Below are positions 28,796 to 44,300 of a stretch of DNA of 64,000 nt, piece after piece. The position numbers and the translations under genes were made by a program. Under the pieces are notes generated by a model. It made no database searches. It was not told the DNA's origin and worked only from the letters and a program-made list of their open reading frames with translations. The stretch's first letter is position 1; each line of letters begins with the position of its first letter. Source of the stretch: Treponemataceae bacterium (GTDB lineage: Bacteria > Spirochaetota > Spirochaetia > Treponematales > Rectinemataceae); the NCBI GenBank assembly GCA_963677895.2, contig CAXXGJ010000002.1, positions 288,001-352,000 on the forward strand, written 5' to 3'.

Positions 28796-30328
28796 TCAGC
28801 GCAGCTTGGCATCGTACATATAGAGGAATTCGTCCGATCGCGGCTTCCAGTCCAGTCGGCTCGAAAGTCCGTAGAGTACGGGCTGCTTGTAGAGGAAGAT
28901 AGCCGGGGCGGCTTCGTTGATCAGGGCTCCCGCCTTGGCGTACAGGCTCTTGCGCAGGGCCTTGTCCGTCGTCTCGTTCGCTCCGGTCAGCAGCTTGTCG
29001 ATGGCGGGATCCTCGATGGTCCTTAAGAGGCTGCCGGACTTAGTGATGAAGTTGAAGACATAGGAGGCGTCGAACACCGGATTGCCCCAGCCGACGAAAT
29101 ACATCGGCGATGTCTTGTGGGAGAAAAGGGCTCCGTTGAACGCCCCGAATTCCAGGGTGTTGATTTCGGCCTTGACCCCGACTTCGCCGAGATAGCCCGC
29201 GATGGCCTGCACCACGGCGCTGTCGTTGATGTAGCGTCCGCTCGTCGCGTCCAGCTTGATGCTGAATCCATTCGGGTAACCGGCGTCGGCGAGGAGCTGG
29301 CGTGCTTTCTTGGGATCGTAGGGATAGGGCTTCACGTCCGGGGTAAATCCGAAGTCGTGGGAGGTGAGCAGGGTAGCGGTTTCCTCGCTGGCGGGGCCGA
29401 TCAGCCTGCTGATGATCGTCTTCTTGTCCACCGCGTAGTTGAGGGCCTGCCTGACGCGCACATCCTTGAGCGGGGAGTCCTGGACGGTGTCCAGTCCGAC
29501 GAGGAGAACGCGGGTTCCGGTAACTGAGGCGAAGCTGGCCTTGGGATTGGCGTCGATCTGGCTCTTCGCAGTGACGGGAGGATCGACGATGAGGTCGGCC
29601 TTGCCGCCCAGGAGGGTGGCAACCCTGCTGGGCGCCGAGCTCACGGTCTGGAACTCGACGTACTGCGCGGGAGCCGGGGTCTTCCAGTAATTGTCATTAC
29701 GCCTGAGCACGATCCTGTTGCCCCTGTCCCAGCGGACGAACTGATAGGGACCGGTGCCGACGGGTTCTTCGTTGAACTTCTGGGCCCCGACTTTTTCCCT
29801 GTAGAGGGGAGGCACGATCTGGAGTTCGGAGAAGTAGTGGTCGGCGAGGGGGAAGGGGCGCTTGCCGATGATGCGCAGCGTAAGCTTGTCGATGACTTTC
29901 ACCTGGTCGATCCAGTTGAGGTCGTTGGCCCTGGTGGACTTGCTCGCGGGGTCGAAGATCTTGTCGACCGTGTATTTGACAGCGTCGGCGGTCAGGGCTT
30001 CGCCGTTGTGGAACACGACGCCCGGCCTGAGCTTGAACAGCCATGAGGTGTCGCTTTCGCGGACATAGCTCTCGGCGAGCGCCGGCACTACCTGTCCGTC
30101 GGGGGTTTTCAGGAGAAGCGAATCGAAGATATTGAGGGTCACGTTGTACGCGGGAACGGTCCGGTTCGTCACGGGATCCAGCCCCGTGGGCTCAGCGGAT
30201 TGTATGACGACGAGGGGATCCTTCTCGCTCCCTGCCTGCGCGAAGAGGCCGGCATTGGATCCGAAGAGCATAGCCACGATAGCCGCCATGATGATAAGAC
30301 GAAGACTTGTACCGCCGCGACGAAGCAT
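28796..30328 (-). CDS. ABC substrate-binding protein, peptide/nickel family 5
   Basis: PALAES, FKLRPGVVFHNGE.LTADAV, PVGTGPY, D.RVRQALNYAVD; AGGAGGTG RBS before ATG 30328. Confidence 0.88.
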   Translation of the reverse strand: MLRRGGTSLRLIIMAAIVAMLFGSNAGLFAQAGSEKDPLVVIQSAEPTGLDPVTNRTVPAYNVTLNIFDSLLLKTPDGQVVPALAESYVRESDTSWLFKLRPGVVFHNGEALTADAVKYTVDKIFDPASKSTRANDLNWIDQVKVIDKLTLRIIGKRPFPLADHYFSELQIVPPLYREKVGAQKFNEEPVGTGPYQFVRWDRGNRIVLRRNDNYWKTPAPAQYVEFQTVSSAPSRVATLLGGKADLIVDPPVTAKSQIDANPKASFASVTGTRVLLVGLDTVQDSPLKDVRVRQALNYAVDKKTIISRLIGPASEETATLLTSHDFGFTPDVKPYPYDPKKARQLLADAGYPNGFSIKLDATSGRYINDSAVVQAIAGYLGEVGVKAEINTLEFGAFNGALFSHKTSPMYFVGWGNPVFDASYVFNFITKSGSLLRTIEDPAIDKLLTGANETTDKALRKSLYAKAGALINEAAPAIFLYKQPVLYGLSSRLDWKPRSDEFLYMYDAKLR

Positions 30329-30466: not shown

Positions 30467-30541
30467 TAAGAATATTTATGCAGAAACCGGCCCCGCGAAG
30501 TGTCTCGCCTTCGCGCCTCCTCCGCTGTATACTCTCCACCC

Positions 30542-31771
30542 ATGCGGAACAGCGAAATCTCCGAAAAGCGACTGATGCACGATATCGAAACCATAGCCAG
30601 CTGGAACGAATCCGACCCCGCCGCCGGATACGACCGCCCCACGTTTTCCCCGTCCTGGAAGGCGGCACGCGATTATGTCATCGAGGAAGCCCGGAGGCTG
30701 GGCTGCTCGGTGCGGACGGACCCCATCGGAAACGTCCACGCGCGTCCATCAGGGCTCTCCTGGGACGAGCCCGCCTGGCTCTGCGGCTCGCATATCGATA
30801 CGGTGCCGAGCGGGGGGAAATTCGACGGGGTAGTCGGCGTGGTCGTGGCGCTCGAACTCCTAAGGACCCAGCCCGACGTCGCCATGGAGTTGGTGATCTT
30901 CGCCGAGGAGGAGGGCACCACCTTCGGCATCGCCATGCTGGGCAGCCGGGCCTGGGCGGGAACGATAGATATAGAACAGATTAAAAAACTGAAGAATCGC
31001 GCCGGAATCGATGTCGAGACCGCCGGCAAGGCTTTTGGCGTCGCGTTGGACAAGATCAACGCACAGAGCTTCGGCTTTCCCCTCGACCGCTACAAAGGCA
31101 TGCTCGAAGTGCACGTCGAACAGGGATCGGGCCTGTGGAAAAAGGGCTTGCCCGCCGCCGTGGTCACCACGGTCAACGGGCGGAGACAGTATTCGGGGCA
31201 GATCCAGGGGCTTGCCAACCACGCGGGCTCGACGGCCATGTCGGACCGATTCGACGCCCTCGCTGGAGCCGCCGAGCTCGTCCTCGGCCTCGAGGCTTTG
31301 GGAAGGGAAATAGACCGCGTCCACCCCGGATCGACCCTGACGACAGGAGCCTTGACCGTGTCGCCCAACGCGGTGAACGTCGTCCCGGGGAGGGCTGACT
31401 TCATGCTCGACTTCCGCTCGCCTTCCAATGAAGCCCTCGCCTCTGGCGACACCTCGATCCGCCGCCTCCTCTCTTCCATCGGGGAGAAGCGGGGCCTTCA
31501 GACACGGATCGAATGTTTCGAGAACCTGCCGGCCCTGCCCTTCGACTCCGGTCTCTGCGATCGCCTGCGTAGGGCTGGGGCCGAATTGGGAATTCCTCTG
31601 CCCGACGCCTCGAGCGGTGCCTTGCACGACAGCGCCATCCTCGCTCCCTTCCTGCCCACGGCCATGCTCTTTGTGGCAAGCAAGGACGGAATAAGCCACA
31701 ACCCGGCCGAGTTCAGCCGGCCTGAGGACATCGCGGCCGCGGCGCGCATCGTGGCCGCCGCCATAGCTTGA
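30542..31771 (+). CDS. M20 Zn-dependent hydrolase (allantoate amidohydrolase / N-carbamoylase family)
   Basis: GSHIDTV..GGKFDG, AEEEG, EVHVEQG, NHAG, SGALHD, GISHNPAE. Confidence 0.88.
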   Translation: MRNSEISEKRLMHDIETIASWNESDPAAGYDRPTFSPSWKAARDYVIEEARRLGCSVRTDPIGNVHARPSGLSWDEPAWLCGSHIDTVPSGGKFDGVVGVVVALELLRTQPDVAMELVIFAEEEGTTFGIAMLGSRAWAGTIDIEQIKKLKNRAGIDVETAGKAFGVALDKINAQSFGFPLDRYKGMLEVHVEQGSGLWKKGLPAAVVTTVNGRRQYSGQIQGLANHAGSTAMSDRFDALAGAAELVLGLEALGREIDRVHPGSTLTTGALTVSPNAVNVVPGRADFMLDFRSPSNEALASGDTSIRRLLSSIGEKRGLQTRIECFENLPALPFDSGLCDRLRRAGAELGIPLPDASSGALHDSAILAPFLPTAMLFVASKDGISHNPAEFSRPEDIAAAARIVAAAIA

Positions 31772-31841
31772 AAGTTAACTTCGGAGTCAGAGCTCCCGCG
31801 GCTCGTCGGCCAGTGAAGTCGCGCCGGCGCGACGATAATCC

Positions 31842-33524
31842 CTAGCGCCGCGCCTCGAAGGTCGGCAGTGGCTTGCCTTCGCAGGTGGTCAGGCGCGGCG
31901 GCTGGGTACCATAAAGCAGATATTCGGCGATCGGCCTGTCGACGCTGTCGTCCCCGTAGGGTAAAAGGACGAAATGCTGGAATTCGCGTTTCACGACGAT
32001 CAGGCTGGCGTTGGGCAGAGCCGCGAATGTTTTCAAGGCCCCTTCCAGGATCGTATAGGGATCGTACTCTGACTGCAGCATGACGAAGCCCCCGGCTCGG
32101 GCTATGGTCTCGACGGGCGGTCGCTTTACCCTTTGACCGCCCCAGTACAGACAGGGATTCTCGATGCCGGAACCTCCGAAAAGGGGATAGAGTTCGGCGT
32201 TGAAAGCGCTTGCCAGAACCCAGGCATCCGCGTCGTACGAGGTTCCCGCGTCATTGCACTGCACGGCCCATCCAACGGCGTCAAATGAATCCATGTCGAC
32301 AATGCCGGTCTCCATCCGCAACTTTTGGAAATAATTCTTGCTGATCGTCTTGGCTCTTTCGAGCGCCAGATCGCGGAATTCAGGCGGGACTCCCCATTCA
32401 TTTTTATCTAGCAAAGCGTTGAGCGATTCTTCTGTTTCGGGCGAATGGGTGCCAAGCAAGCCTTGCACTGTCTTCGCGGCATAAAAGGTGAACAGTGTGA
32501 CGTGAGCGTTGACGGATTGAGCGATAGTCTCGTGCAGGAGAGCCGATGTAACATCCAGAAGATTCCCCCGCAGTGAACGGAAGATCTGCCGCACTTCTTC
32601 GGCGGAGCCTCCTAGTTTGAAGATTTCCGGATTTTCGGCGGCGTAGGGGGCCAATATCTCGTCCATCACCCGCTGCATTCCCATTTCCTGCGACAATAGC
32701 GTATCGTTGAGCTTTACGGTTATATCGGTGTTGCCGATCATCACCATGCGCCCGACCCGCTCGGGGAACAGGCCCGCATACCAGGTGCCGAGCCATGTTC
32801 CGTATGAAATACCCAGATAGTTCAGTTTGTCGTCGCCCAGCACGCACCGTATGATATCCATGTCGCGGGCGGTGGCGTCGGAGTTAATATAAGGCGTCAA
32901 CGGATTGCTCAGACAGGCTTTCGCTTTCAAGCGGGCGTTGAGCAGGTTGTTTTGTATGTTTTCCGCGGCGCCGTCGGCGACGAGAATGCTGGCGGACATG
33001 AGTTTTTCGGCTGACGTACAGCGCAATTGGGTGCTGGAACCGGTTCCCCGCGGCGAGAAACCGACTAGGTCGTAGCATTGCGCGATTTCCCTGAAAAGCT
33101 TGCCGGATTCGCTGTTCGTGACGGGGTTGGCCTCTCCCCAGAGATACCCGAACAGCAGGCTGTAAGGCAGTCCGTCATCTCCCGGCCCGCCCGGGTTGAT
33201 GAGGATGGCGCCTCGGCGTCGCTGTGGATCCCCCGCCGCCACCTTGAGCAGGGCGACTTCAATGTCGCCGCGCGCGGGGTCGGTGTAGTCAAGAGGAACC
33301 TTTATGGTGGCTCGGCGCGCCCTCTCGCCGAACAGGGTCAGCAGCCCTTTGTAGTCGTCGCTCAAGGTGCCGGGGTCGCAGGCTATCCATGCCGGAACCT
33401 GGTTTTCATAGACGGCCAGCAGGTTGGACGCTTCATCCGCGCCGCTCGCGGTCACCAGAAGAAAACCCATTATCAATAGCAGTGTTCCACGGACTAAAAA
33501 CCTTGATCGTTGTTTCATCATCAC
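31842..33524 (-). CDS. Exported alpha/beta hydrolase, TAP-like peptidase
   Basis: Signal peptide; VPLDY..P, INPGGPG, F.PRG.G.S, ARDMD.IR..LG..KLNYLGISYGT, YDPYT. Confidence 0.85.
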   Translation of the reverse strand: MMMKQRSRFLVRGTLLLIMGFLLVTASGADEASNLLAVYENQVPAWIACDPGTLSDDYKGLLTLFGERARRATIKVPLDYTDPARGDIEVALLKVAAGDPQRRRGAILINPGGPGDDGLPYSLLFGYLWGEANPVTNSESGKLFREIAQCYDLVGFSPRGTGSSTQLRCTSAEKLMSASILVADGAAENIQNNLLNARLKAKACLSNPLTPYINSDATARDMDIIRCVLGDDKLNYLGISYGTWLGTWYAGLFPERVGRMVMIGNTDITVKLNDTLLSQEMGMQRVMDEILAPYAAENPEIFKLGGSAEEVRQIFRSLRGNLLDVTSALLHETIAQSVNAHVTLFTFYAAKTVQGLLGTHSPETEESLNALLDKNEWGVPPEFRDLALERAKTISKNYFQKLRMETGIVDMDSFDAVGWAVQCNDAGTSYDADAWVLASAFNAELYPLFGGSGIENPCLYWGGQRVKRPPVETIARAGGFVMLQSEYDPYTILEGALKTFAALPNASLIVVKREFQHFVLLPYGDDSVDRPIAEYLLYGTQPPRLTTCEGKPLPTFEARR

Positions 33525-33658
33525 GCTCCGCTCGCTTTCATCGTCTAAAAATGATAGAAGTCTCCATCCTCACTCCTCCGATTGTCAAGCGCATTTTTTT
33601 TGCATGTGTCAAACCCAAAAGTTCTTGATGTTCCAGGATCAGGAGCTAGTGCGGTTCA

Positions 33659-34372
33659 TCAGCGAGAGGGGGCCGTGTTCAATTGTTTCTTGATCTGCCG
33701 CCATTGGGGAAGATGGAGCGTCATGAGTCCCTTGAATCGCGCATCGTGGCGCCGCTCCAGCAGATGGACCAGCTCATGGACGACGACATACTCGAGGCAT
33801 TCGGGCGGTTTTTTCGCGAGTTCAAGGTTGAACCAGAGGCGCCTGGCTTTGACGTTGCAGCTGCCCCATCTGGTCTTCATCTTTCGTATGCCCCATGCGG
33901 TGGTTTTTACGCCGAGCATAGGCTCCCACTTCGCGATCAAAGGAGCTATCTCGAGCTTCAGCTGCTTGCGGTACCAACGGTCGAGGACATCCCGACGATG
34001 CGCGACATCAGATCCGGCGCGCAGGGCCAGCTCCATCGTGTCGATCCCTTTTAAAACGACGCCTTCGCGTCCCACTACTTCCCGGATCGCGAGGCTATAT
34101 CTTTTCCCTTGAAACCAATGCGTTTCGCCCTCAGCCATCTCGCGTTCCGGTGGGCGAACCTGGCTCGCGAACTTTTCCCGGTGGCCCTTGATCCACGCGA
34201 GGCGCTCGATCACCGCGAGCTTGATGGCCTCTTCGCCCACCCAGAACGGCACGGCCAAACGAACCTTGCCATCCGGCGGGTAGACGGTGATATGCAGGTG
34301 CCTGATCACCTTGCGGACCACCTCTACCTGGATGCCGGCGACTTCGATCCAGGTCGTCTTGTTATTCTTCAT
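33659..34372 (-). CDS. DUF45/YgjP-like M48 family metallopeptidase-fold protein
   Basis: HITVYPPDG.V, MKTRWGSC, LEYVVVHELVHL (HExxH), H...F; start overlaps the hipA 3' end by 11 nt. Confidence 0.88.
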   Translation of the reverse strand: MKNNKTTWIEVAGIQVEVVRKVIRHLHITVYPPDGKVRLAVPFWVGEEAIKLAVIERLAWIKGHREKFASQVRPPEREMAEGETHWFQGKRYSLAIREVVGREGVVLKGIDTMELALRAGSDVAHRRDVLDRWYRKQLKLEIAPLIAKWEPMLGVKTTAWGIRKMKTRWGSCNVKARRLWFNLELAKKPPECLEYVVVHELVHLLERRHDARFKGLMTLHLPQWRQIKKQLNTAPSR

Positions 34373-35702
34373 CGATACCGCTTCGAAGCCTTTCAACCGC
34401 GGCTTGAATTCCTTCAAGGATCGGCTCTGAAACCGCAGCGGGAAAGTCCGTCGGTAGCGCCGACGACACGGACTCGATCATTTTGGGAGTAACTTCTACA
34501 AGTTCCTGAAAAATTCCTTCAATCTCGCCCCGAGCCCTGCATTTCGACGCGGTGGATCGCCAGCGGCCTGCCGTGATCTGCCCCCATTTGTTGTGTCGAG
34601 CCTTCCCGACAACCGACATGGCCATTGTAAGCTTCTGAGGTGCCAGCTTATTTACCCCATGACCCAAGATTGGATACGCGGACAGTACATCGTAGAAAGG
34701 GGTAAGCGAGAAGCGGCTTTGCGGTTCGAGGAATATGCTGAAATTCTTCGCGTGTCCGTCCGGTGCGGCCAGAATCCAATACAGCACCTGGGCTTTCAGG
34801 AAGTTTTTCCTGTCGACAAGAGCATCTCTCGATCCAAGCAACAGTTCCATAATTCTGATGATCCCAGGCCCGCCCTCATTTTCATATTTCGCCCCTGGCG
34901 GAGTGCCCGTCGCTTGGCACATATCTTCCTGTGGAAGGCGAATCCACCACGTACCATCTGATGAAAGCCTTCTGTCGAAACGCTCTACGACAAGCACATG
35001 CTGATCTTCAAAATCGGCTCTTTCGCAGCGAGCCACCGGGAGGCCATATGCCTCCACGATTCGTGCGCAGAGCCACTCGTTCTCCACCGATTCCTTCATA
35101 TCAGCCTGCATCGACCCGACCAGGCCTAAGGGCAATTTGAATATATGGGACGAAGGGGTTGTTCCTATTGGCATGCACCATCGGCCTTCGTGCCAGAGGA
35201 ACGCTGTCTTTTCCTGGGCTCCAGCGATCGAAATGCGAAAATTGTCATCGAGGGGCTGGCCGAATCCGGGAGAAGCCACCGCTCGCTTAAGAGCTCGCGC
35301 TACCCCGGCTTCATCGAGTGACTGGGCGGAGATGGTTCTGATCTCCGAAGGCGATTCCTCATCAGGTAGGAGCTGAATCGCGCCCACGCAATCTCTTCCA
35401 ATTTCGGCGAGTAGATCAAAGGCTGAGTTTTTCTCGACGGAGAAACGTCTCTGCAAACGCCTACGGATGTCCGCGCTGTCGGGCAACAGATTCTCAAAAA
35501 AGGCTTCAACCACCTCTCCCATATAAGCTGATTCCGCGTTAACTACGGGCATCGAGAGCGAAAGTGGCCGGACCTCTGGGTATTCTAGCCATTCTGCGTT
35601 GTAACGGAACTCATGGATGCCCGAAGAAAGGACTGACCAGGTTCCAACGCGCTCGCCGTTCATCCAAACCCCGAGGCGTTTCATCTTCGATTGCCGGCCC
35701 AT
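34362..35702 (-). CDS. hipA: HipA family toxin kinase (Couple_hipA + HipA_C)
   Basis: LSLSMP, FFENLLPD, ISIAGAQEK, HIFKLP, VERFDR, QEDMCQA, DGHAKNFS, TPFYD. Confidence 0.93.
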   Translation of the reverse strand: MGRQSKMKRLGVWMNGERVGTWSVLSSGIHEFRYNAEWLEYPEVRPLSLSMPVVNAESAYMGEVVEAFFENLLPDSADIRRRLQRRFSVEKNSAFDLLAEIGRDCVGAIQLLPDEESPSEIRTISAQSLDEAGVARALKRAVASPGFGQPLDDNFRISIAGAQEKTAFLWHEGRWCMPIGTTPSSHIFKLPLGLVGSMQADMKESVENEWLCARIVEAYGLPVARCERADFEDQHVLVVERFDRRLSSDGTWWIRLPQEDMCQATGTPPGAKYENEGGPGIIRIMELLLGSRDALVDRKNFLKAQVLYWILAAPDGHAKNFSIFLEPQSRFSLTPFYDVLSAYPILGHGVNKLAPQKLTMAMSVVGKARHNKWGQITAGRWRSTASKCRARGEIEGIFQELVEVTPKMIESVSSALPTDFPAAVSEPILEGIQAAVERLRSGIDEE

Positions 35703-35704
35703 AA

Positions 35705-35956
35705 TTACCACTCCGCCGCGCGAACCGCGCTTGCGCTCTCATCCTTCAGCATGAGTGTCAATTCGAGTTTCAGGGCTACAAGGAGCGTCCGCAGGCTCTC
35801 GACGCTGCAACGATCCGGGTTTGTCTCCAGGGCGGATACCGTCTTGGGGAGCAGCCCGACCAAGCCCGTAATATCCTTCTGAGTAAGCCCAAGCGCTTTT
35901 CGTCGCCCTCGCAGCATGGCCGCAAGTTGTTTCGACGTGTAGATCGCTGTCTGCAT
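35705..35956 (-). CDS. hipB: HipB-like XRE HTH antitoxin
   Basis: L...LRGRRKALGLTQ......GL....VSALE; ends 2 nt before hipA; alternative start at 35968. Confidence 0.88.
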   Translation of the reverse strand: MQTAIYTSKQLAAMLRGRRKALGLTQKDITGLVGLLPKTVSALETNPDRCSVESLRTLLVALKLELTLMLKDESASAVRAAEW

Positions 35957-35958
35957 AT

Positions 35959-36030
35959 TTTCCCCCATAAGGTATATATAGATAATATACCCTGTAAGGG
36001 CTTTATTTGCAATATGCCTTATAGGGGTTT
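35959..36030. promoter_or_regulatory. Three HipB-type operator sites
   Basis: TATACCTTATGGGGGAAA (minus, 35959-35976), TATACCCTGTAAGGGCTT (35986-36003), TATGCCTTATAGGGGTTT (36013-36030); 27-bp spacing; resemble TATCC-N8-GGATA. Confidence 0.65.
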
Positions 36031-36150
36031 TTATAGATCAATATCATAGCGCCTTCATTTTGGCCAAGTTTTGTCTGGCAACTCAACATAACCAGGTGAG
36101 GGCGTATCTTTTCAACCTGTTTAAATGTGCAAAAGATAGTTTAGGTTATC

Positions 36151-36264
36151 GGCTAACGCCTAGTTAACCTGCAAGCCAGCTCGCGAAGCGATTTGAATGT
36201 AATTTGCTATCTTATATCATAATAAATTATAAATTTCGCTTTCAGGTTGAACTAGATGTTAGAC
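36151..36264 (-). mobile_element. Integron attC site (114 bp) ending the DUF262-Schlafen cassette
   Basis: Minus strand: R'' GTCTAAC overlapping the stop codon, L'' CTAGTT[C]AACCTG, L' CAGGTTAACTAG, R' GTTAGCC; one unpaired base; internal AAGCGA/TCGCTT pairing. Confidence 0.85.
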
Positions 36265-38033
36265 TAGAAGCGCTTTGCTATGGCTGCTATTGTCTTCGGG
36301 TCGACGGCCTTTGTTGTTTGATCGCCTTCACGCCAATATAGGTCTGACCCGACAAATGTTAAGTCGGTTTGTTGCGGGATTTCAATCACCACTAGACCAA
36401 GGCCATAGTAGTCGTGGAAATCAATGTGCGACAGAACACTCGATTTCGTTGGTTCGGTGAGACTTGAATTCTTTATTTCATCCCTGATTCGCGTGACGTA
36501 TTGTTCGAGGGTCATACCGAGAGCCTTTGCCTCCCTCCCAATGCCAACAATGTATCGACTGCCAACGAGGATCGGTTTCACACCATCCAACTTCTCAATT
36601 CTCTCGGCGTCAGCGACTTTGTCGGCGACACCTACCAAAATAGTCCCTTCAGACTCTGAGCCGTTATTAGCAATTGCAGCTATTGTGTGAATTATTTTCG
36701 TGAGAACGCTTGGTTCAATCTGACGTTTTCCTGACAGCTCTGTCAGCCCTTGCTTGAGCTCGTAGTTTGCGAGCTCAATGGACGACCTTCGAATCGTTAC
36801 GTCGATGTCTGGGATCGTGCTACCGGAATATGTTCTCGGATTCTTGTCATTTGGCACAAATATGCTCTGAATTAGCCCTTTGATCTGGTCAATACTTTTT
36901 CGCCTCTCCTCAGGAGAAGCACCTTTCTGGCCAATCTCAATTCGTTTATTAAGTCCGCGCATGAGCCTTTTTACTTCGCTGTAACTACTGATCTTGAGAT
37001 TGTTCTTAATGAGCAGTTCGTGAAACGCGAGGAAAATAATGGCAAAGACCGAAGGATATGCGTTACTTGTCTTTGATTCAAAAACCACATCTCTCAAAAT
37101 CTCGCTCTTTCCGTCGGCACAGACCTTCATAATCTCGTCTATACAGAAACTAAACTCCTTCTCGAACTTCTCAGAACCATAAATCGTGAGTGCGGTTTCG
37201 ATTCGATCACTTTCTGCGTCTGCCGTATCATACACCTTATCAAGTGCTTCCTTGGAACGGTCTAGACAAGTCCCCCCAATAGTACAGGCGGTGATGTCTG
37301 CGACACACTGCTCGTCCATACTGTCCCTAAGGTCGGTGGCGCGAAGAATTCCATGTTCGACCCAAAATACGTCTTCTGCTTGAATCTGGTAGCCATGCTT
37401 CGTCTTTGGTAAGTCAATACTTATGGAATGCATTGCATGAAGCGGCAATACGGTTGCCGATCCGTCGCCGCGAATCGTACAGGAAATCTTCCTGACGGCT
37501 TCGGAGAATGAATTCTGAACCCCCGCCTGTCTCCTCTCCTGATCGCTTAGCCGATGTCCGTAAGTGTTAATTCGATCAAAAACATCGTTAATTTCGGTTT
37601 CAGTTGCCTTTCTCATGACCGACAACGCTATGGAGTAGTCAAGTAGCGTGCTCACATCCGCTGCACCAAGTTTAGGCTCTCCATCCCGAATTAAAAATTT
37701 CCCTTCTTCAGAGGCTTTCTTTGCAGTGGGAAACCGATCAACGTCAAAGACGGCTCCGTTTGCTGTTGGAAATGCCATTTCAATGAATGAGAGTACGGCC
37801 TGTAATCTTTGGAGGCCATCAATAATCTCATAGGTTCCAGGCGCTTCTTCGCGCTCAGCGAGCAATATGGCTGGAATTGGATACTTCTTCAGTAATGACT
37901 CAACGAGTTTCTGCTTTTCTTCTAGAGTCCAGACAAGCTTTCGCTGGTACCGGCGATTCACAAAGATTTTTTCTTCTCTGTACATAGAGTACAAGGACTG
38001 CACGGAACTCGTTTGAGATGTCAATTCTGCCAT
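36264..38033 (-). CDS. DUF262 (GmrSD N-terminal/ParB-like) domain fused to a C-terminal Schlafen AlbA_2 domain; putative defence protein
   Basis: YQRKLVW, IIDGLQRL, FDRINT.G.RL (DUF262); IELANYELK, IAAIANNG, GTILVGVAD (AlbA_2); AAGGAG RBS; GC below host level. Confidence 0.8.
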   Translation of the reverse strand: MAELTSQTSSVQSLYSMYREEKIFVNRRYQRKLVWTLEEKQKLVESLLKKYPIPAILLAEREEAPGTYEIIDGLQRLQAVLSFIEMAFPTANGAVFDVDRFPTAKKASEEGKFLIRDGEPKLGAADVSTLLDYSIALSVMRKATETEINDVFDRINTYGHRLSDQERRQAGVQNSFSEAVRKISCTIRGDGSATVLPLHAMHSISIDLPKTKHGYQIQAEDVFWVEHGILRATDLRDSMDEQCVADITACTIGGTCLDRSKEALDKVYDTADAESDRIETALTIYGSEKFEKEFSFCIDEIMKVCADGKSEILRDVVFESKTSNAYPSVFAIIFLAFHELLIKNNLKISSYSEVKRLMRGLNKRIEIGQKGASPEERRKSIDQIKGLIQSIFVPNDKNPRTYSGSTIPDIDVTIRRSSIELANYELKQGLTELSGKRQIEPSVLTKIIHTIAAIANNGSESEGTILVGVADKVADAERIEKLDGVKPILVGSRYIVGIGREAKALGMTLEQYVTRIRDEIKNSSLTEPTKSSVLSHIDFHDYYGLGLVVIEIPQQTDLTFVGSDLYWREGDQTTKAVDPKTIAAIAKRF

Positions 38034-38081
38034 TGTAATGACTCCTTTTTGGTCATGCTCTTTCGTGCGCCGAAGGCGTCA

Positions 38082-38197
38082 GCCTAACATTGGCTTAACC
38101 TTTAAATCCGTGCCCGAAGGTTTTGGCTTGGTTTTTGCATTGTTGTTCCTGCAAAAACCATGACAAAGGATTTATAAGGTCGAAGCATTTGTTATAT
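38082..38197 (-). mobile_element. Integron attC site (116 bp) ending the OLD-like cassette
   Basis: Minus strand: R'' ATATAAC, L'' GCTT[C]GACCTT, inner TAAATCC/GGATTTA and perfect TGGTTTTTGCA/TGCAAAAACCA arms, L' AAGGTTAAGC, R' GTTAGGC. Confidence 0.85.
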
Positions 38198-38216
38198 AAA
38201 TTTCCATATATTATTA

Positions 38217-40136
38217 CTAAACAAAAGTTTTATTAATTTCTTTAAAAAGCAGCTCAAAGTGGTCAAAGGTAGTATTTGAAAGCCTTGGTAATATTTCATC
38301 ACGTTTTCTTAAAAATAGATCAGCGGGTTTACCATGATCAAATCTTTCAATTCCAAGGTGCCGTGCTATCTTCCTAACAATAGGGTCAGAACCATTTAGT
38401 TCATTTAGCATAATATTACCACTAAATGCGATATTGTATAGCTCTAAATATTCTTTAGGATCAAACAAATCTTCTATATCTGCTTCTGTTAATCTTAATA
38501 TAGCACCTATAGTAATAATCTTATTTGCTTTTAGTATTCCTTGCTCAACTATTTTTTTAAGCTTTTGATTTCCTCCTTTTTGTGAATCAATAACAACTGT
38601 AACGTCAAGATGATTTCCCAATAGCGCAACAAATGTTGGGACTAAATCTACTCCTCCAACAGGTACAAACGACCATTTTTCATTCAAAAACTCCCTTTTA
38701 CCATCATTTTTAAAATAGTCAGATATAACCTGGAGGTAAGTAAAATCAGAAGTCCCTTCTACAATTAGGTTGTTAGGTGCAATAAATAGATTTTGCACGA
38801 GATCATAACCAAGTGCTCCTTGTAGAGGAAATAAAGTATCTGCATCAGTAGTTGTTACATCTTTCGATACTATTGTTCCTAGCTCTTGTCCTTTATCTTC
38901 AACAAGACGAACTCTTTCCAGTTTCCCCGGTTGTATCATAAAAGGAGAATGGGTTGTATATATTACTTGACATTTTTTTGCTAACCTATCTTCAATGAAC
39001 CTTAAAAAATCTGCTTGAGCCTTCGCATGTAAACCTAGAGCTGGTTCATCCAAAAGAATAATAATTGAATCATTTCTATATTCATATTCCGAGAATGCTG
39101 CAAGAAATGAAAAAAACCATTGAAAACCTGTTGAATGTTCGTTAAATGGTAAGGATAGTTGATGCCTTTGATCCCATATTCTTATCTTTAATTCATCAAC
39201 AACACTTGTTCTCCCTGAAGGTTCGTTTATAGTTTTTAAGGTAATATCTGGCAGTACTCTCAGTTCAGGATTTTGTGTCCAATATTTAAGAACATCTTGT
39301 GTTAATGCATTAGCAACATTTTCAAGTTCTCTTTTCCTTCTTTCATAATCTGGGTTAATAAGGTAGTCTTTATCTGCAGCAGCAAGATTAAGAAGTGCTT
39401 TTGCCGTTATCTCTTTGTCATTTAGCTGATTTTGATCTGTTGTTAATAGTTTTTGAATTTGAACAGAATACGGTAATGTACTATATTCAGACATATACAA
39501 AAACTTTGGCATAATTTTTTTAAGATAGATAATTAGCTTATCATCTAGTGTCTTTCCTTGAAGAGAATTTTGAATTACCTCAACAATTTTACTTGATACA
39601 GCTTTTTGCTCTACAGTATATTCTTCATTAATTCTAATTTTTTCAGAATACTCCTTAAGTTCAGAAATTGTTTTACACTTTGTTGCATCTGTCTTTGTAC
39701 CCTTTGGCCAATCAATTTTATTAATAAGATTGGTCACAAAATAGTTTTCATGTGATTCAATAATGAAATTTTGTTTTCCTGAGTATTCCATATTAATGCT
39801 AAATGGTTTTTTGCAGTTTATAAATCCTTCTCCAAATATTTCTTCGATTTCTTTCGTTTCTTTATCTGAAAAAGAAAATACTGCATTAATAGGTGTAATA
39901 TTTTCAAGAACTTTGCCTTGAATTCTATCTTTTTTTTCAAGCCATGCTGGATATTGATCCGGAATCGAAAATGATACATTTGTTCTTGAAGGATTCAACC
40001 TATATAGAGCATGAAGAAAAGCAGTTTTACCTGATTCATTCTTTCCAACTAGACATGTAATATTATTCTCAATGTCTACATTATTGGAATTAATAATATT
40101 TCTAAAACACTGAACATCAACAGATTTTAGTAGCAT
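38217..40136 (-). CDS. OLD-family-like ATP-dependent nuclease (ABC ATPase + TOPRIM-like domain)
   Basis: Walker A GKNESGKT, STG signature, ILLDEP, TTHSP, then LIVEGTSD, PVGG, DIEDL; very AT-rich; AGGAGG RBS. Confidence 0.8.
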   Translation of the reverse strand: MLLKSVDVQCFRNIINSNNVDIENNITCLVGKNESGKTAFLHALYRLNPSRTNVSFSIPDQYPAWLEKKDRIQGKVLENITPINAVFSFSDKETKEIEEIFGEGFINCKKPFSINMEYSGKQNFIIESHENYFVTNLINKIDWPKGTKTDATKCKTISELKEYSEKIRINEEYTVEQKAVSSKIVEVIQNSLQGKTLDDKLIIYLKKIMPKFLYMSEYSTLPYSVQIQKLLTTDQNQLNDKEITAKALLNLAAADKDYLINPDYERRKRELENVANALTQDVLKYWTQNPELRVLPDITLKTINEPSGRTSVVDELKIRIWDQRHQLSLPFNEHSTGFQWFFSFLAAFSEYEYRNDSIIILLDEPALGLHAKAQADFLRFIEDRLAKKCQVIYTTHSPFMIQPGKLERVRLVEDKGQELGTIVSKDVTTTDADTLFPLQGALGYDLVQNLFIAPNNLIVEGTSDFTYLQVISDYFKNDGKREFLNEKWSFVPVGGVDLVPTFVALLGNHLDVTVVIDSQKGGNQKLKKIVEQGILKANKIITIGAILRLTEADIEDLFDPKEYLELYNIAFSGNIMLNELNGSDPIVRKIARHLGIERFDHGKPADLFLRKRDEILPRLSNTTFDHFELLFKEINKTFV

Positions 40137-40415
40137 AATATATCCTCCTAATTCTTCTAGCTTTTATTTATCACGTAAAAATATATTATTCTTTACAATA
40201 CATTGTATTATTTTTTGCGTCGAAGGCGTCCATCTAGCAAAAATTCGCTTGTTCCGTATATCTCCTAAATCATCATTTTACACCACTCCAGAATCAGCGC
40301 AAGTCTTAATTCCAGTTTTCAAAAGAAAATATCTTGACTTATGTAATCAATATTTTAGTCAAGCATTAGTATTAACACTTTTATTGGTGCTACATGAATG
40401 CTATATTCCCAATAT

Positions 40416-41243
40416 ATGCCCCTCCATATCGGCACCTGTTCCTGGAACTACGACTCCTGGGTTGGGCTGGTGTACGACCAGCCTGAATCGCGATCGGTCG
40501 ACTACCTCGCCGTCTACGCGAAGCGCTACAGGATGGTCGAAGTCGATTCCTGGTTCTACAAGATTCCGGCCATCAGGGAAGTTGAGGAATACGCGGCCGC
40601 CATCGATCCGGGCTTCAGCTTTGTCGTCAAAGCGCCACAGGACATAACGCTCACGCATAAGCGGGGCGGCATTGAACCGAATCCCGCCTTCCTCTCAGCC
40701 GAGCTCTTCGGCCACTTCCTCGAAAGGCTCGCGCCGATCAAAGGCCAAGTCGGTGCTATCATCCTCGAATTCGAGTACCTGAACCGCCAGAAGATGGTTG
40801 GCCAACAAGCCTTCATCGATGCGTTGCGCGCCTTTCTCGATCGCGTGCCCAGGGACATTCCCATCGCTCTGGAGCCGCGGAACGGACCTTACCTCGACGA
40901 AGCTTGGTTCTCCTTCCTGGCTGAAGCCAAGGTCTCCCATGTCTTCTCGGAAAAGCAGTTCATGCCGCCCATCGTCGATCTCTACGCGCGCTACTCAAGG
41001 CTTCTCAACGATCTTGTCATCATCCGCCTGCTCGGCGGCGGCCGGAAAAAGATAGAGGAAGTTTCGGGGGGACGCTGGGACAAGATCATCGATCCGAAGC
41101 CCGAGCTTCCCCATATAGCGGCCATGGTTTCGGATTTGGTCGCGTCGGGGCGCGAGGTCCGGATCGACGTCAACAATCATTATGAGGGATCGGCGCCGGA
41201 AAGCATCGAAAGGTTAAAAGGTTTTCTCTTTTCTCCGTTGTGA
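40416..41243 (+). CDS. DUF72 (YecE-like) domain protein
   Basis: IGTCSWNY.SW...Y, VEVDSWFY, F.VKAP..ITL, ALEPR, IRLLG, VNNHYEG.AP. Confidence 0.88.
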   Translation: MPLHIGTCSWNYDSWVGLVYDQPESRSVDYLAVYAKRYRMVEVDSWFYKIPAIREVEEYAAAIDPGFSFVVKAPQDITLTHKRGGIEPNPAFLSAELFGHFLERLAPIKGQVGAIILEFEYLNRQKMVGQQAFIDALRAFLDRVPRDIPIALEPRNGPYLDEAWFSFLAEAKVSHVFSEKQFMPPIVDLYARYSRLLNDLVIIRLLGGGRKKIEEVSGGRWDKIIDPKPELPHIAAMVSDLVASGREVRIDVNNHYEGSAPESIERLKGFLFSPL

Positions 41244-41330
41244 AATCCCCCTGCGTGGATAATACTATTAAGAACGAGAGCATTCATCGTCTACGATGTA
41301 TGCCACTCTCATAAACCAGGAGACACCAGG

Positions 41331-44300
41331 GTGAAAGCGAACCGTCCACATTCACAGGCACGTTATGCGATCATAATCGCGCTTCTGCTGTTCATAGGCG
41401 GCTTGTTGCCGGCGGCGGCCGAGCAGGGCGCCCTCCCCACATCGTCATTCACGCCACGTCAGCTTGCCGTTATAGCCAAGGAAGCGAGCGAAGCGGTAGA
41501 GCAAGCCCTGCAGTCCACGGGAGCCTCGGCCGCGAGCGTCGCACTGGGCGATGGCGGCGGCACGGTGTGGTCCGCTCAATTCGGATTGGCCGACAAGAAA
41601 GCGAAGAAGGCGCCCGAGGCGGAGACGATGTTCGGCATAGGCTCCACGAGCAAGATGTTCGCCACCGCCGCCGCCATGATACTTGTGGACAGAGGCCTGA
41701 TCGGTCTGGATATGCCCCTCGTCACCTATCTTCCCGAGTTCCGCATGGCGACACCGGGCTACGAAAAAATAACCGTACGCATGCTGCTCAACCATTCCGC
41801 GGGATTCCCGGGAACGGACTACCGCAACGCGATGACGCGCGCCCCGATTCCCGGCTATGCCGATCAGGTTCAGGCGACCCTCGCCGAATCACGGCTGAAA
41901 CACGAGCCGGGATGGATGAACGTCTACGCCAATGACGGCTTCACCATGGTGGAACTTCTCGTCAAGAAAATGACGGGCCTCGATTATCCCGCCTTCATCG
42001 AAAAGGAAATTCTTTCGCCCTTGGGAATGAACCATTCGCTCTACCCGCTCGACTCCTTCCGCGAAGGAAGCTTCGCCAAGCCCTATGCTGGGGAACAACC
42101 CCTCCAGCAGGAGTACGTGGGACCATTGGCCTCGGGCGGGCTCTACTCCACGCCTTCCGACCTCACGCGCTTCGCGGCGATGTTTATAGGGAAAGGCAGT
42201 CTGCTGGATAAGCGGATTCTCTCCCCTGAATCCGTAGCCGCCATGGCTCTGGACCAGACCGCGGGAAGATTCAGTCCCTTGTCCAGCGGCTATTTCCGCA
42301 ATGGTCTCGGCTGGGACACCGTCGATCATGAAGGAATGGCGGCCTTCGGGATAAAGGCTTGGCAGAAGGGTGGCGACACCAATTCCTATGGTTCGACGCT
42401 TATCGTCCTGCCGGAAGAAGGCCTCTCGGTAGCGGTGACCGGCGCCTCGGGCCTGCATTCCGACAGCGCGAACGCGATCGCCGAAATAGTATTGGCTCGC
42501 GCCCTCGTGGAAAAAGGAAGGCTCGCGGCCATGCCGGTCGCGGTTCCGGCGGCAGCCCGGCAGACGGCGGCTGTGCCCCTCGAATTTCTCCAGAATATGT
42601 CAGGCGTCTACGCTTCCTTCAACGCGGTCAATAAAATCGAACTCCGCGCCGACGGCAGCCTTTCATTGTATTCATACAAGAATGACGCGTGGGTGCTGGC
42701 CCTTCAGGGGATGAGCTACCGCGATGACGGATGGTTCAGCTCCAGCGATGCCGGCGCTCCTCCTGTCGACGTTACCAGAATCGTGGCGGACGGCCGCGAT
42801 TACTTGGCGATCCGCATGCCGAGCGCGCATGGGTGGTATCGATCGGCCATGCCGCTCGCGCAAAAAATCGCCCCTCGGCCTCCTCTTTCTGCCGCGTGGC
42901 AGAAACGCGTGGGCAAGACCTGGCTTCCCGTAAATTACGCGGCCGAAGACGATTACCTCGCCAAGGGCGCTGACCCCAGGATCTGGCTCAAGACGATAGA
43001 AGGCGCCGAAGGCTATGTGTTCTCCCGCGGTACCGATGGCTGGATGGCGACGATACCCGCGACCGGAAACGGGGATTATGAATCCCGCTCCTTCATTCTC
43101 ATCCCGCAAATAAACGGTAGGGATCTCTACGACGTGAAGGTTATCCAGCGGGACGGAGAGGAATGGCTTCGCGAAACGAGCACCCTGTATCGGCCCCTCG
43201 ATTCCGTGCCCGCGCTAAGTCTCGGCGAGAGTCGCGTAACGACAGGCACCGAAGGTTATGCGGAATGGCGCCGCCTGCCTGCCGAAGCCCAATTCACCGT
43301 GACCGGGGCGAAAACCTTCAAATTCTACGACGCGGATTTCGCGTTGCGGGATGCCGATTCCCTCACGACGGGCGCAGGCGGCGGGTATCTGGCTGTCTTC
43401 GGCGCCCCAGGCGGCAGCGCGCGAATTTCGGTGCGCTCCATCTCGAAATCTCAGGCTGCGATTTCCGTCCCCTTCTCCCCCGAGCAGAAGGCGCGGATCG
43501 CCGAAGCCGGCCGCAATGCAGCCGAGTCCGTCATGAAATCCTCGGGCGGATCAGCCCTGACCGCCGCCATTGTCGATGAAAGCGGGCTCATCTGGGCCGA
43601 GCAGTTCGGATTCGCCGACAAAGCGACCAGCAGCCCGCCGGAAGCTACCACCATGTTCGGCATCGGCTCGGTGAGCAAGATGTTCGCGGCCGTCTCGGCG
43701 ATGATCCTCGTCGACCGTAATCTCGTGGACCTCGACGCGCCGCTTACGGACTACCTTCCCGAATTCCGGATGGCCGATCCGCGCTACAAAGCGATCACCG
43801 TGCGGATGATTCTGAACCACAGCGCGGGCCTGCCCGGCGCCGACCTGCGCAACGCCGTAACCCTCGTCCCCTACACCGAAATGGCGGGTCAGGTCCTCAG
43901 GACAATCCAGACGCAGCGCCTCAAGCACGAGCCGGGCTTCATGTCCGTCTACGCCAACGATGGTTTTACCCTTACCGAACTCCTTGTTGAGGCTGTGTCG
44001 GGAATGCGCTTCCCCGATTTCGTGCAGAAGGAAATATTCTCGCCTCTAGGGATGGCGAACAGCCGCTACCCCACCGTGGAGTTCCCCGCCGATTCCTATG
44101 CCCACGTCTATTTCGGCGAGGAAGGCGCTCCCTGGTTCTTCTTGAACATGTATGGCACGGGCGCGCTTTTATCCACACCGACTGATCTGGCGAATTTTTC
44201 GATGATGCTGGCCTCGGGCGGCGAATACAAGGGGAAAAGGATATTGTCGGAAGCCTCTGTCCGCGCAATGGGGCAGGACCAGACCGCCGGCACCTTCAAT

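Follow-up and report, generated by a model that had tools for sequence, protein, structure and literature searches.

The window, meaning the whole 64-kb stretch of DNA that was analyzed, carries on its minus strand a gene (positions 36264 to 38033) for a 589-amino-acid (aa) fusion of a DUF262 domain to a Schlafen domain. The open reading frame (ORF) starts with ATG, has AGGAG 8 nt upstream, and has a G+C content of 46.6%, below the 59% of the window and the 56% of the assembly. Upstream of it lies a separate cassette with a 639-aa OLD-family ABC-ATPase/TOPRIM gene (38217 to 40136, minus strand; 31% G+C). Its product matched Pfam AAA_15 with an E value of 3.6e-28, an OLD-like TOPRIM domain with a below-cutoff E value of 0.0016, and the PADLOC Old model with an E value of 1.3e-21. 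A conserved leader (40238 to 40400, minus strand) heads this two-gene array. No tRNA genes were found within the 64-kb window, and Rfam searches gave nothing credible between positions 30000 and 44000.

A DUF262-Schlafen protein without a DNase domain

The ParB-like NTP-binding domain GmrSD_N/DUF262 (PF03235) occupies residues 14 to 169 (37527 to 37994, minus strand; E value of 1.3e-21, 78 bits, cutoff of 33.2). It contains the three motifs QRxxxW, DGxQR, and FxxxN that define DUF262 in PMC12065111 (this and the other cited papers were available as excerpts) in the form of QRKLVW (residues 30 to 35), DGLQR (72 to 76), and FDRINTYG (152 to 159). The C terminus forms a Schlafen/AlbA_2 nuclease domain of approximately residues 411 to 589 (36267 to 36803, minus strand), within which SLFN_AlbA_2 (PF04326) matched residues 423 to 575 (E value of 2e-7, 32 bits, cutoff of 25.3). 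It includes the sequences IELANYELK (419 to 427) and GVAD (468 to 471), the former of which holds the Schlafen active-site motif Ex4(E/D)xK as E420-LANY-E425-L-K427, a motif defined as catalytic in PMC13056530. Between the two domains is a region of ∼240 aa (approximately residues 171 to 410; 36804 to 37523, minus strand) that belongs to no Pfam family. No GmrSD_C/DUF1524 or HNH family was found in the protein at an E value of ≤0.1, and a motif search showed that the DHIYP-type motif of DUF1524 HNH nucleases, [DE]H[IVL]xP, is absent. An earlier note made from the sequence alone had described an N-terminal DUF262 domain, a C-terminal AlbA_2 domain, and no DUF1524/HNH motif; both domains score above their Pfam cutoffs, and every motif that it quoted was found. 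The middle region that it reported is also present but spans ∼240 aa (170 to 410) rather than ∼200 aa.

An AlphaFold2 model built from a 28-sequence alignment had a mean pLDDT of 71 and a pTM of 0.61. The C-terminal domain was modeled with confidence (pLDDT mostly >85), residues 170 to 410 were helical, and the DUF262 half was of low confidence, with pLDDT of <50 over much of residues 1 to 216. Foldseek matched the C-terminal fold to DIP2311 (3lmm, the best at an E value of 9e-4, probability of 1.00), SAMD9 (7ksp, 1.00), and the SAMD9 tRNase domain (9o0d, 0.99), which bears out the predicted Schlafen fold; the E values of these AlbA_2/SAMD9 matches are modest, from 9e-4 to 0.026. Over the whole length, the model resembled BrxU (7p9k, E value of 2e-3, probability of 0.87), and SspE was matched at an E value of 0.033 and a probability of 0.25 (6jiv). 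Noc was also among the first twelve rows, with low-probability RNA polymerase matches intermixed. Searching the PDB by sequence, with either the protein or the 28-sequence profile, gave nothing meaningful, and no Atlas match to the middle region reached 0.9. In NsnA, GmrSD, and SspE, DUF262 is followed by a helical DNA-binding region (PMC12065111), and by analogy, the middle region plausibly corresponds to the ParB-associated DNA-binding region in GmrSD, SspE, and NsnA. The window protein thus shares with GmrSD, BrxU, and SspE a DUF262 domain that contains DGxQR and precedes a helical region but differs in lacking a DUF1524/HNH DNase and in having a Schlafen domain as its effector.

The gene lies in an integron cassette

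The earlier note had proposed that the gene moves as a cassette, and the term is literally true, as attC-like sites flank the gene on both sides. The site at 38082 to 38197 (minus strand) is the attC of the upstream cassette, and at its crossover (G at 38088), the DUF262-Schlafen cassette begins, spanning 38087 to 36157 (1,931 bp, minus strand). It was matched by nhmmer (E value of 9.7e-25) to the attC family of the chromosomal cassette array that makes up the whole of contig C39 of this assembly (G000; 46 kb, 33% G+C; 49 plus-strand attC matches, one of them partial), and its hairpin had a z score of −6.95, with 0 of 200 shuffled sequences as good. The same attC family has >100 copies in G001, a genome of the same genus. 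The cassette is closed by a 114-bp site at 36151 to 36264 (minus strand) whose R'' box overlaps the stop codon. Its L boxes are complementary at 7 of 7 positions and its R boxes at 6 of 7, and its bottom-strand hairpin had a z score of −2.36 (5 of 200 shuffles as good). This second site was not matched by the model built from the C39 sites, is called with less certainty than the first, and falls outside the main attC family of the host, which suggests that the cassette was made elsewhere. The unit therefore has the organization of an integron cassette, with one ORF, an attC closing it, and a recombination crossover before it. A strict attC scan found 18 sites, all on C39, and missed both sites in the window because their R boxes are noncanonical. 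Further single attC matches occur on contigs C4, C5, C6, C13, C18, C28, and C30.

The cassette form is atypical of the family. None of the 55 homologue loci that held the complete gene plus 250 downstream bases (30 of the 85 were dropped) had an attC-type site, while 5 of 1,100 shuffled sequences passed the same test. No report of a pSlfn7 gene (the class discussed below) as an integron cassette was found in the literature searched. Next to the downstream attC, the 107 bp from 36044 to 36150 are 87% identical to a stretch that directly follows an attC in G001 (L033:2949-3054) and may be what is left of the start of another cassette.

A docking site shared by three chromosomes

The leader ends at an attI-like docking junction at 40238. 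It can be aligned with the corresponding locus of G001 (G001:C3:2195300-2195500, L032) and with contig C5 of this assembly (G000:C5:7609-7717, L116; 80.9% over 110 bp), and a DUF72 gene adjoins it. In both of these loci, the leader ends in a GTTAG junction, after which different cassettes follow. The leader is thus a reusable docking site without an integrase, occupied by different cassettes in three chromosomes: no integrase gene lies beside it, and the 40238 junction is unlike the attI regions that adjoin intI in G001. The flanks are syntenic in G001, where the leader and junction are followed by a single cassette with a short attC and a product that, from reading its sequence, we take to be acetyltransferase-like. 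Contig C5 has the same flanks and two other cassettes at the dock, which encode proteins of 477 aa (L116:6157-7590; weak match to PDC-M36A) and 1,262 aa (L116:2130-5918; weak match to PifA at the N terminus). Neither has a Pfam family at an E value of 1e-5, and both large cassettes are candidate defense genes. The assembly holds two diverged versions of the locus (C5 and positions 30500 to 43000 of the window); its contamination is estimated at 5.5%, and C5 is probably from another strain or a co-binned relative.

No IntI above the cutoff was found in this assembly, which is 92.8% complete, while IntI is present in both of the same-genus genomes (2 of 2). In one of these, an intI gene (L034:5878-7110; G001:C5) is oriented in the same direction as its cassettes. 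This is the arrangement of the Treponema denticola integron. With two attC sites and no IntI above the cutoff in the assembly, the array fits the definition of a CALIN, a cluster of attC sites without an integrase (PMC4889954). Cassette clusters without an integrase are known as CALIN and SALIN, insertion by integrase outside integrons has been described (bioRxiv 10.1101/2022.09.11.507474), and defense genes in integrons have been reviewed (PMC13434031). The array resembles these clusters in its two attC sites, the lack of a nearby intI, and its defense cargo but differs in that the docking leader is conserved and reused in three chromosomes and in that the cargo is a pSlfn7 gene. Different cassettes occupy the same junction, which is at most an indirect sign of possible excision and insertion by IntI.

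The gene belongs to the pSlfn7 class

The earlier note had presented the fusion as a candidate new architecture, but it is a described one. Perez Taboada et al. (Nat Microbiol 2026, PMC13056530) sorted prokaryotic Schlafens into 55 architectures, in which DUF262-Slfn fusions are pSlfn7 ("DUF262.pSlfn"; 109 sequences, defense score of 0.76). A blastn search with the window gene matched 30 of 5,426 Escherichia coli genomes, including NZ_CP104472.1, a record named in the plasmid table of that paper. EcoSlfn7 of E. coli UC4224 (WP_028985442.1, 589 aa), the 3' end of whose gene matches the start of the pAN251 insert given in the supplement, is identical to the window protein at 331 of 589 residues (56%; 75% similarity) with one gap. 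Identity amounts to 110/170 residues in the DUF262 half, 127/240 in the middle region, and 94/179 in the Schlafen part, so that the DUF262 half is the most conserved (65% versus 53%). A second E. coli relative, WP_063081156.1, is 54% identical to the window protein and is listed as pSlfn7 in the same supplement. By its sequence, the window gene is an intact member of the described pSlfn7 class. It shares with EcoSlfn7 the domain order, length, end-to-end similarity, motifs, and single-gene form and differs in coming from a distant host and an attC-bounded integron cassette, whereas EcoSlfn7 is carried by a P2-type prophage, with rep on one side and portal on the other.

According to the excerpts of PMC13056530, EcoSlfn7 protects as a single gene. 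It lowered plating of T7 538 ± 194-fold (range of 389 to 778), of T5 17- to 18-fold, of T4 10- to 20-fold, of T2 10-fold, of T3 ∼3-fold, and of T6 ∼2.5-fold, and it had no effect on T1, lambda, P1, M13, MS2, or Qbeta. The second pSlfn7 protein assayed, EluSlfn7, protected against none of the phages, and membership in the class therefore does not guarantee activity. The excerpts describe no mutant, trigger, or substrate of EcoSlfn7 and no RNA cleavage by the class. Three protein accessions were not mentioned in the papers searched, and a literature search that left most subscription papers outside its range found no later work on the class.

A check against PADLOC, which the earlier note had suggested for finding out whether the system was catalogued, gave matches to the DUF262 part only (residues 5 to 184), to Menshen NsnA (the best, E value of 1.6e-29) and to PD-T4-2; it is PMC13056530 that catalogues the class. 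PADLOC-DB 2.0.0 (2023) has no model that covers the whole protein, which is no sign of novelty because this release predates the pSlfn7 paper. NsnA and PD-T4-2 are alike in having a DUF262 domain without DUF1524 but differ in that the match is confined to this domain and that NsnB and NsnC partners are missing here. NCBIfam gave only a subthreshold match to ParB.

The family is large and tight, with 1,906 matches among 8,000 candidates scored. The best 120 of these 1,906 matches were 56 to 100% identical over 97 to 100% of the length, and QRxxxW, DGxQR, FxRxN, and Ex4(E/D)xK were found in all 120 of these best-listed proteins, the query included. The relatives P0002 to P0004 are 76% identical. 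The Atlas contained three DUF262+AlbA_2 clusters at 0.98 to 0.99. Gene neighborhoods were compared at 85 homologue loci (80 from metagenomes, 3 from E. coli, and 2 from GTDB; flanks of up to 3 to 8 kb, many shorter). No recurring partner was detected by Pfam among 56 of the 70 nearest flanking proteins, a set that excluded duplicates, edge-cut ORFs, the annotated E. coli neighbors, and one bad coordinate. The E. coli copies stand alone in cargo slots of P2 prophages and P4 satellites, and the DUF262-Schlafen gene in general stands alone, without a conserved partner gene. It is rare among the kin of the host: 60 relatives gave two weak DUF262-only matches and no full-length match, and 400 genomes of the phylum, in overlapping samples with some bases not covered, gave one full-length match (43% identical).

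Proposed mechanism and alternative explanations

The findings as a whole are probably best explained by a cassette-borne pSlfn7 anti-phage protein in which a phage cue leads to tRNA cleavage by the Schlafen domain. This agrees with the reading in the earlier note of a single-gene defense protein with a DUF262 module and a Schlafen-fold effector in place of a DNase, as supported by Pfam, the fold, and pSlfn7 homology. From the homology, we infer that the window copy is active against phage. It would be expressed from the leader ahead of the docking junction and stay off until a phage infects, when the cue would be read by the half made up of the ParB-like NTP-binding DUF262 domain and the helical region. 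The DUF262 NTPase gates the fused nuclease in SspE and BrxU (PMC10952713), and as in GmrSD, BrxU, and SspE, an NTP-gated change in this half may activate the Schlafen domain. RorSlfn5 (PMC13056530) and Cash (PMC13462974) cut tRNA on activation, which makes tRNA cleavage the likely output here; it would starve the phage of translation and reduce its progeny. Both have a Schlafen domain with the Ex4(E/D)xK motif, mutation of which abolished defense by RorSlfn5 (PMC13056530), but in neither does this domain follow a DUF262 module; sensing is by an Ig-like domain in RorSlfn5 and by Csx15 in Cash. As the cue, a general feature of lytic T-phage infection, such as the state of the phage DNA or of the nucleotide pools, is more likely than a particular base modification.

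The earlier note had instead proposed a modified-DNA or nucleotide sensor and abortive infection; neither modified-DNA sensing nor abortive infection is supported. In this form, a pSlfn7 protein would sense modified phage DNA through its DUF262 half, as GmrSD and BrxU do, and the cell would die, a course of events to which we give a rather small chance. To our knowledge, T7, T3, and T5 have no hypermodified bases, and because T7 is the best target, a modified-DNA cue fits the spectrum badly. Indeed, T7 was restricted 20- to 200-fold more than the T-even phages (PMC13056530). Such sensing does have precedents in DUF262 proteins, namely, of glucosylated hydroxymethylcytosine (glc-hmC) or phosphorothioate DNA by GmrSD, BrxU, and SspE, with methylated DNA proposed for Dazbog (PMC10952713); the likeness to BrxU in fold extends over the whole length, and EcoSlfn7 does restrict T2, T4, and T6 (PMC13056530). 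As for cell death, abortive infection was reported for an enterococcal Schlafen (PMC13552941), but in the excerpts of PMC13056530, RorSlfn5 lowered burst size by 81% with infective centers unchanged in a center-of-infection assay, i.e., without aborting infection. The GmrSD-like half could also serve as a decoy: phage anti-restriction or DNA-mimic proteins would trip it and thereby free the Schlafen nuclease, in the manner of PARIS with Ocr. We consider this improbable. The Ocr protein of T7 is a DNA mimic. The EcoSlfn7 spectrum peaks at this phage, the N-terminal two-thirds of the protein looks like a type IV restriction enzyme that lacks the DNase, and RorSlfn5 is triggered by a phage protein (PMC13056530). 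A decoy sits poorly, however, with the restriction of six unrelated or distantly related phages and with the strong conservation of the DUF262 half, whereas the protein-sensing domain of pSlfn5 is its variable part (PMC13056530).

Two further explanations concern the window copy and its neighborhood. That it is a silent or inactive passenger without a current defense role in this host appears very unlikely to us: its reading frame, ribosome-binding site, and all motifs are intact, and the docking site keeps collecting defense-like cassettes in related chromosomes. The gene does hold the second position in an integrase-less array, and one of the two pSlfn7 members assayed was inactive (PMC13056530). 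RNA-library contigs (two runs from one study) covered a relative of the OLD gene (95 to 97% identical) and not the DUF262-Schlafen gene, but such contigs cannot show absence. A promoter and terminator scan was at chance level (16 found versus 14.1 expected). A two-gene system was considered because the OLD ATPase lies upstream and the DUF262 part is matched best by NsnA of Menshen, a system in which DUF262 goes together with an ABC ATPase. The two genes lie side by side in the same orientation, but an attC separates them, and their G+C contents differ (31% versus 47%). Relatives of the OLD protein were absent from the 85 homologue loci within their limited flanks, no NsnC-like gene was found, and EcoSlfn7 protects without a partner (PMC13056530). 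Furthermore, a contig from another run that ends at the cassette borders carries a 97%-identical copy of the OLD cassette. This reading is largely refuted and has next to no probability left, and on this sequence evidence, the OLD gene is a neighbor and not a partner of the DUF262-Schlafen gene.

The preferred explanation, a phage-triggered pSlfn7 tRNase, can be extended to a broader proposal that we regard as doubtful in its entirety. In pSlfn7 proteins, a tRNase would have taken the place of the DNase of a type IV restriction enzyme, with the GmrSD-like half as a guard that senses the effects of lytic T phages on restriction systems, host DNA, or nucleotides and not a modified base. The window copy would then be the first pSlfn7 gene seen as an integron cassette, with an attC of foreign type, at a reusable integrase-less defense slot.

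Implications

DUF262-Schlafen fusions were catalogued, and their restriction of phages published, in 2025-26 (PMC13056530). The question worth work is what the DUF262 half of pSlfn7 senses and what its Schlafen domain cuts, for which EcoSlfn7 is better suited, as it already works in E. coli; the window copy contributes a divergent orthologue that could be used in domain swaps. The integron cassette is a third vehicle for pSlfn7, besides the P2 prophage and P4 satellite slots, and a modest addition. The chromosomal docking site may be mined for more defense genes.

A hipB-hipA pair lies directly downstream of the array (34362 to 35968, minus strand). In G001, hipB is kept at this position and hipA is missing, and neither ORF was seen on C5. 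In one metagenome locus (L091), too, a HipA gene is found, ahead of the DUF262-Schlafen gene.
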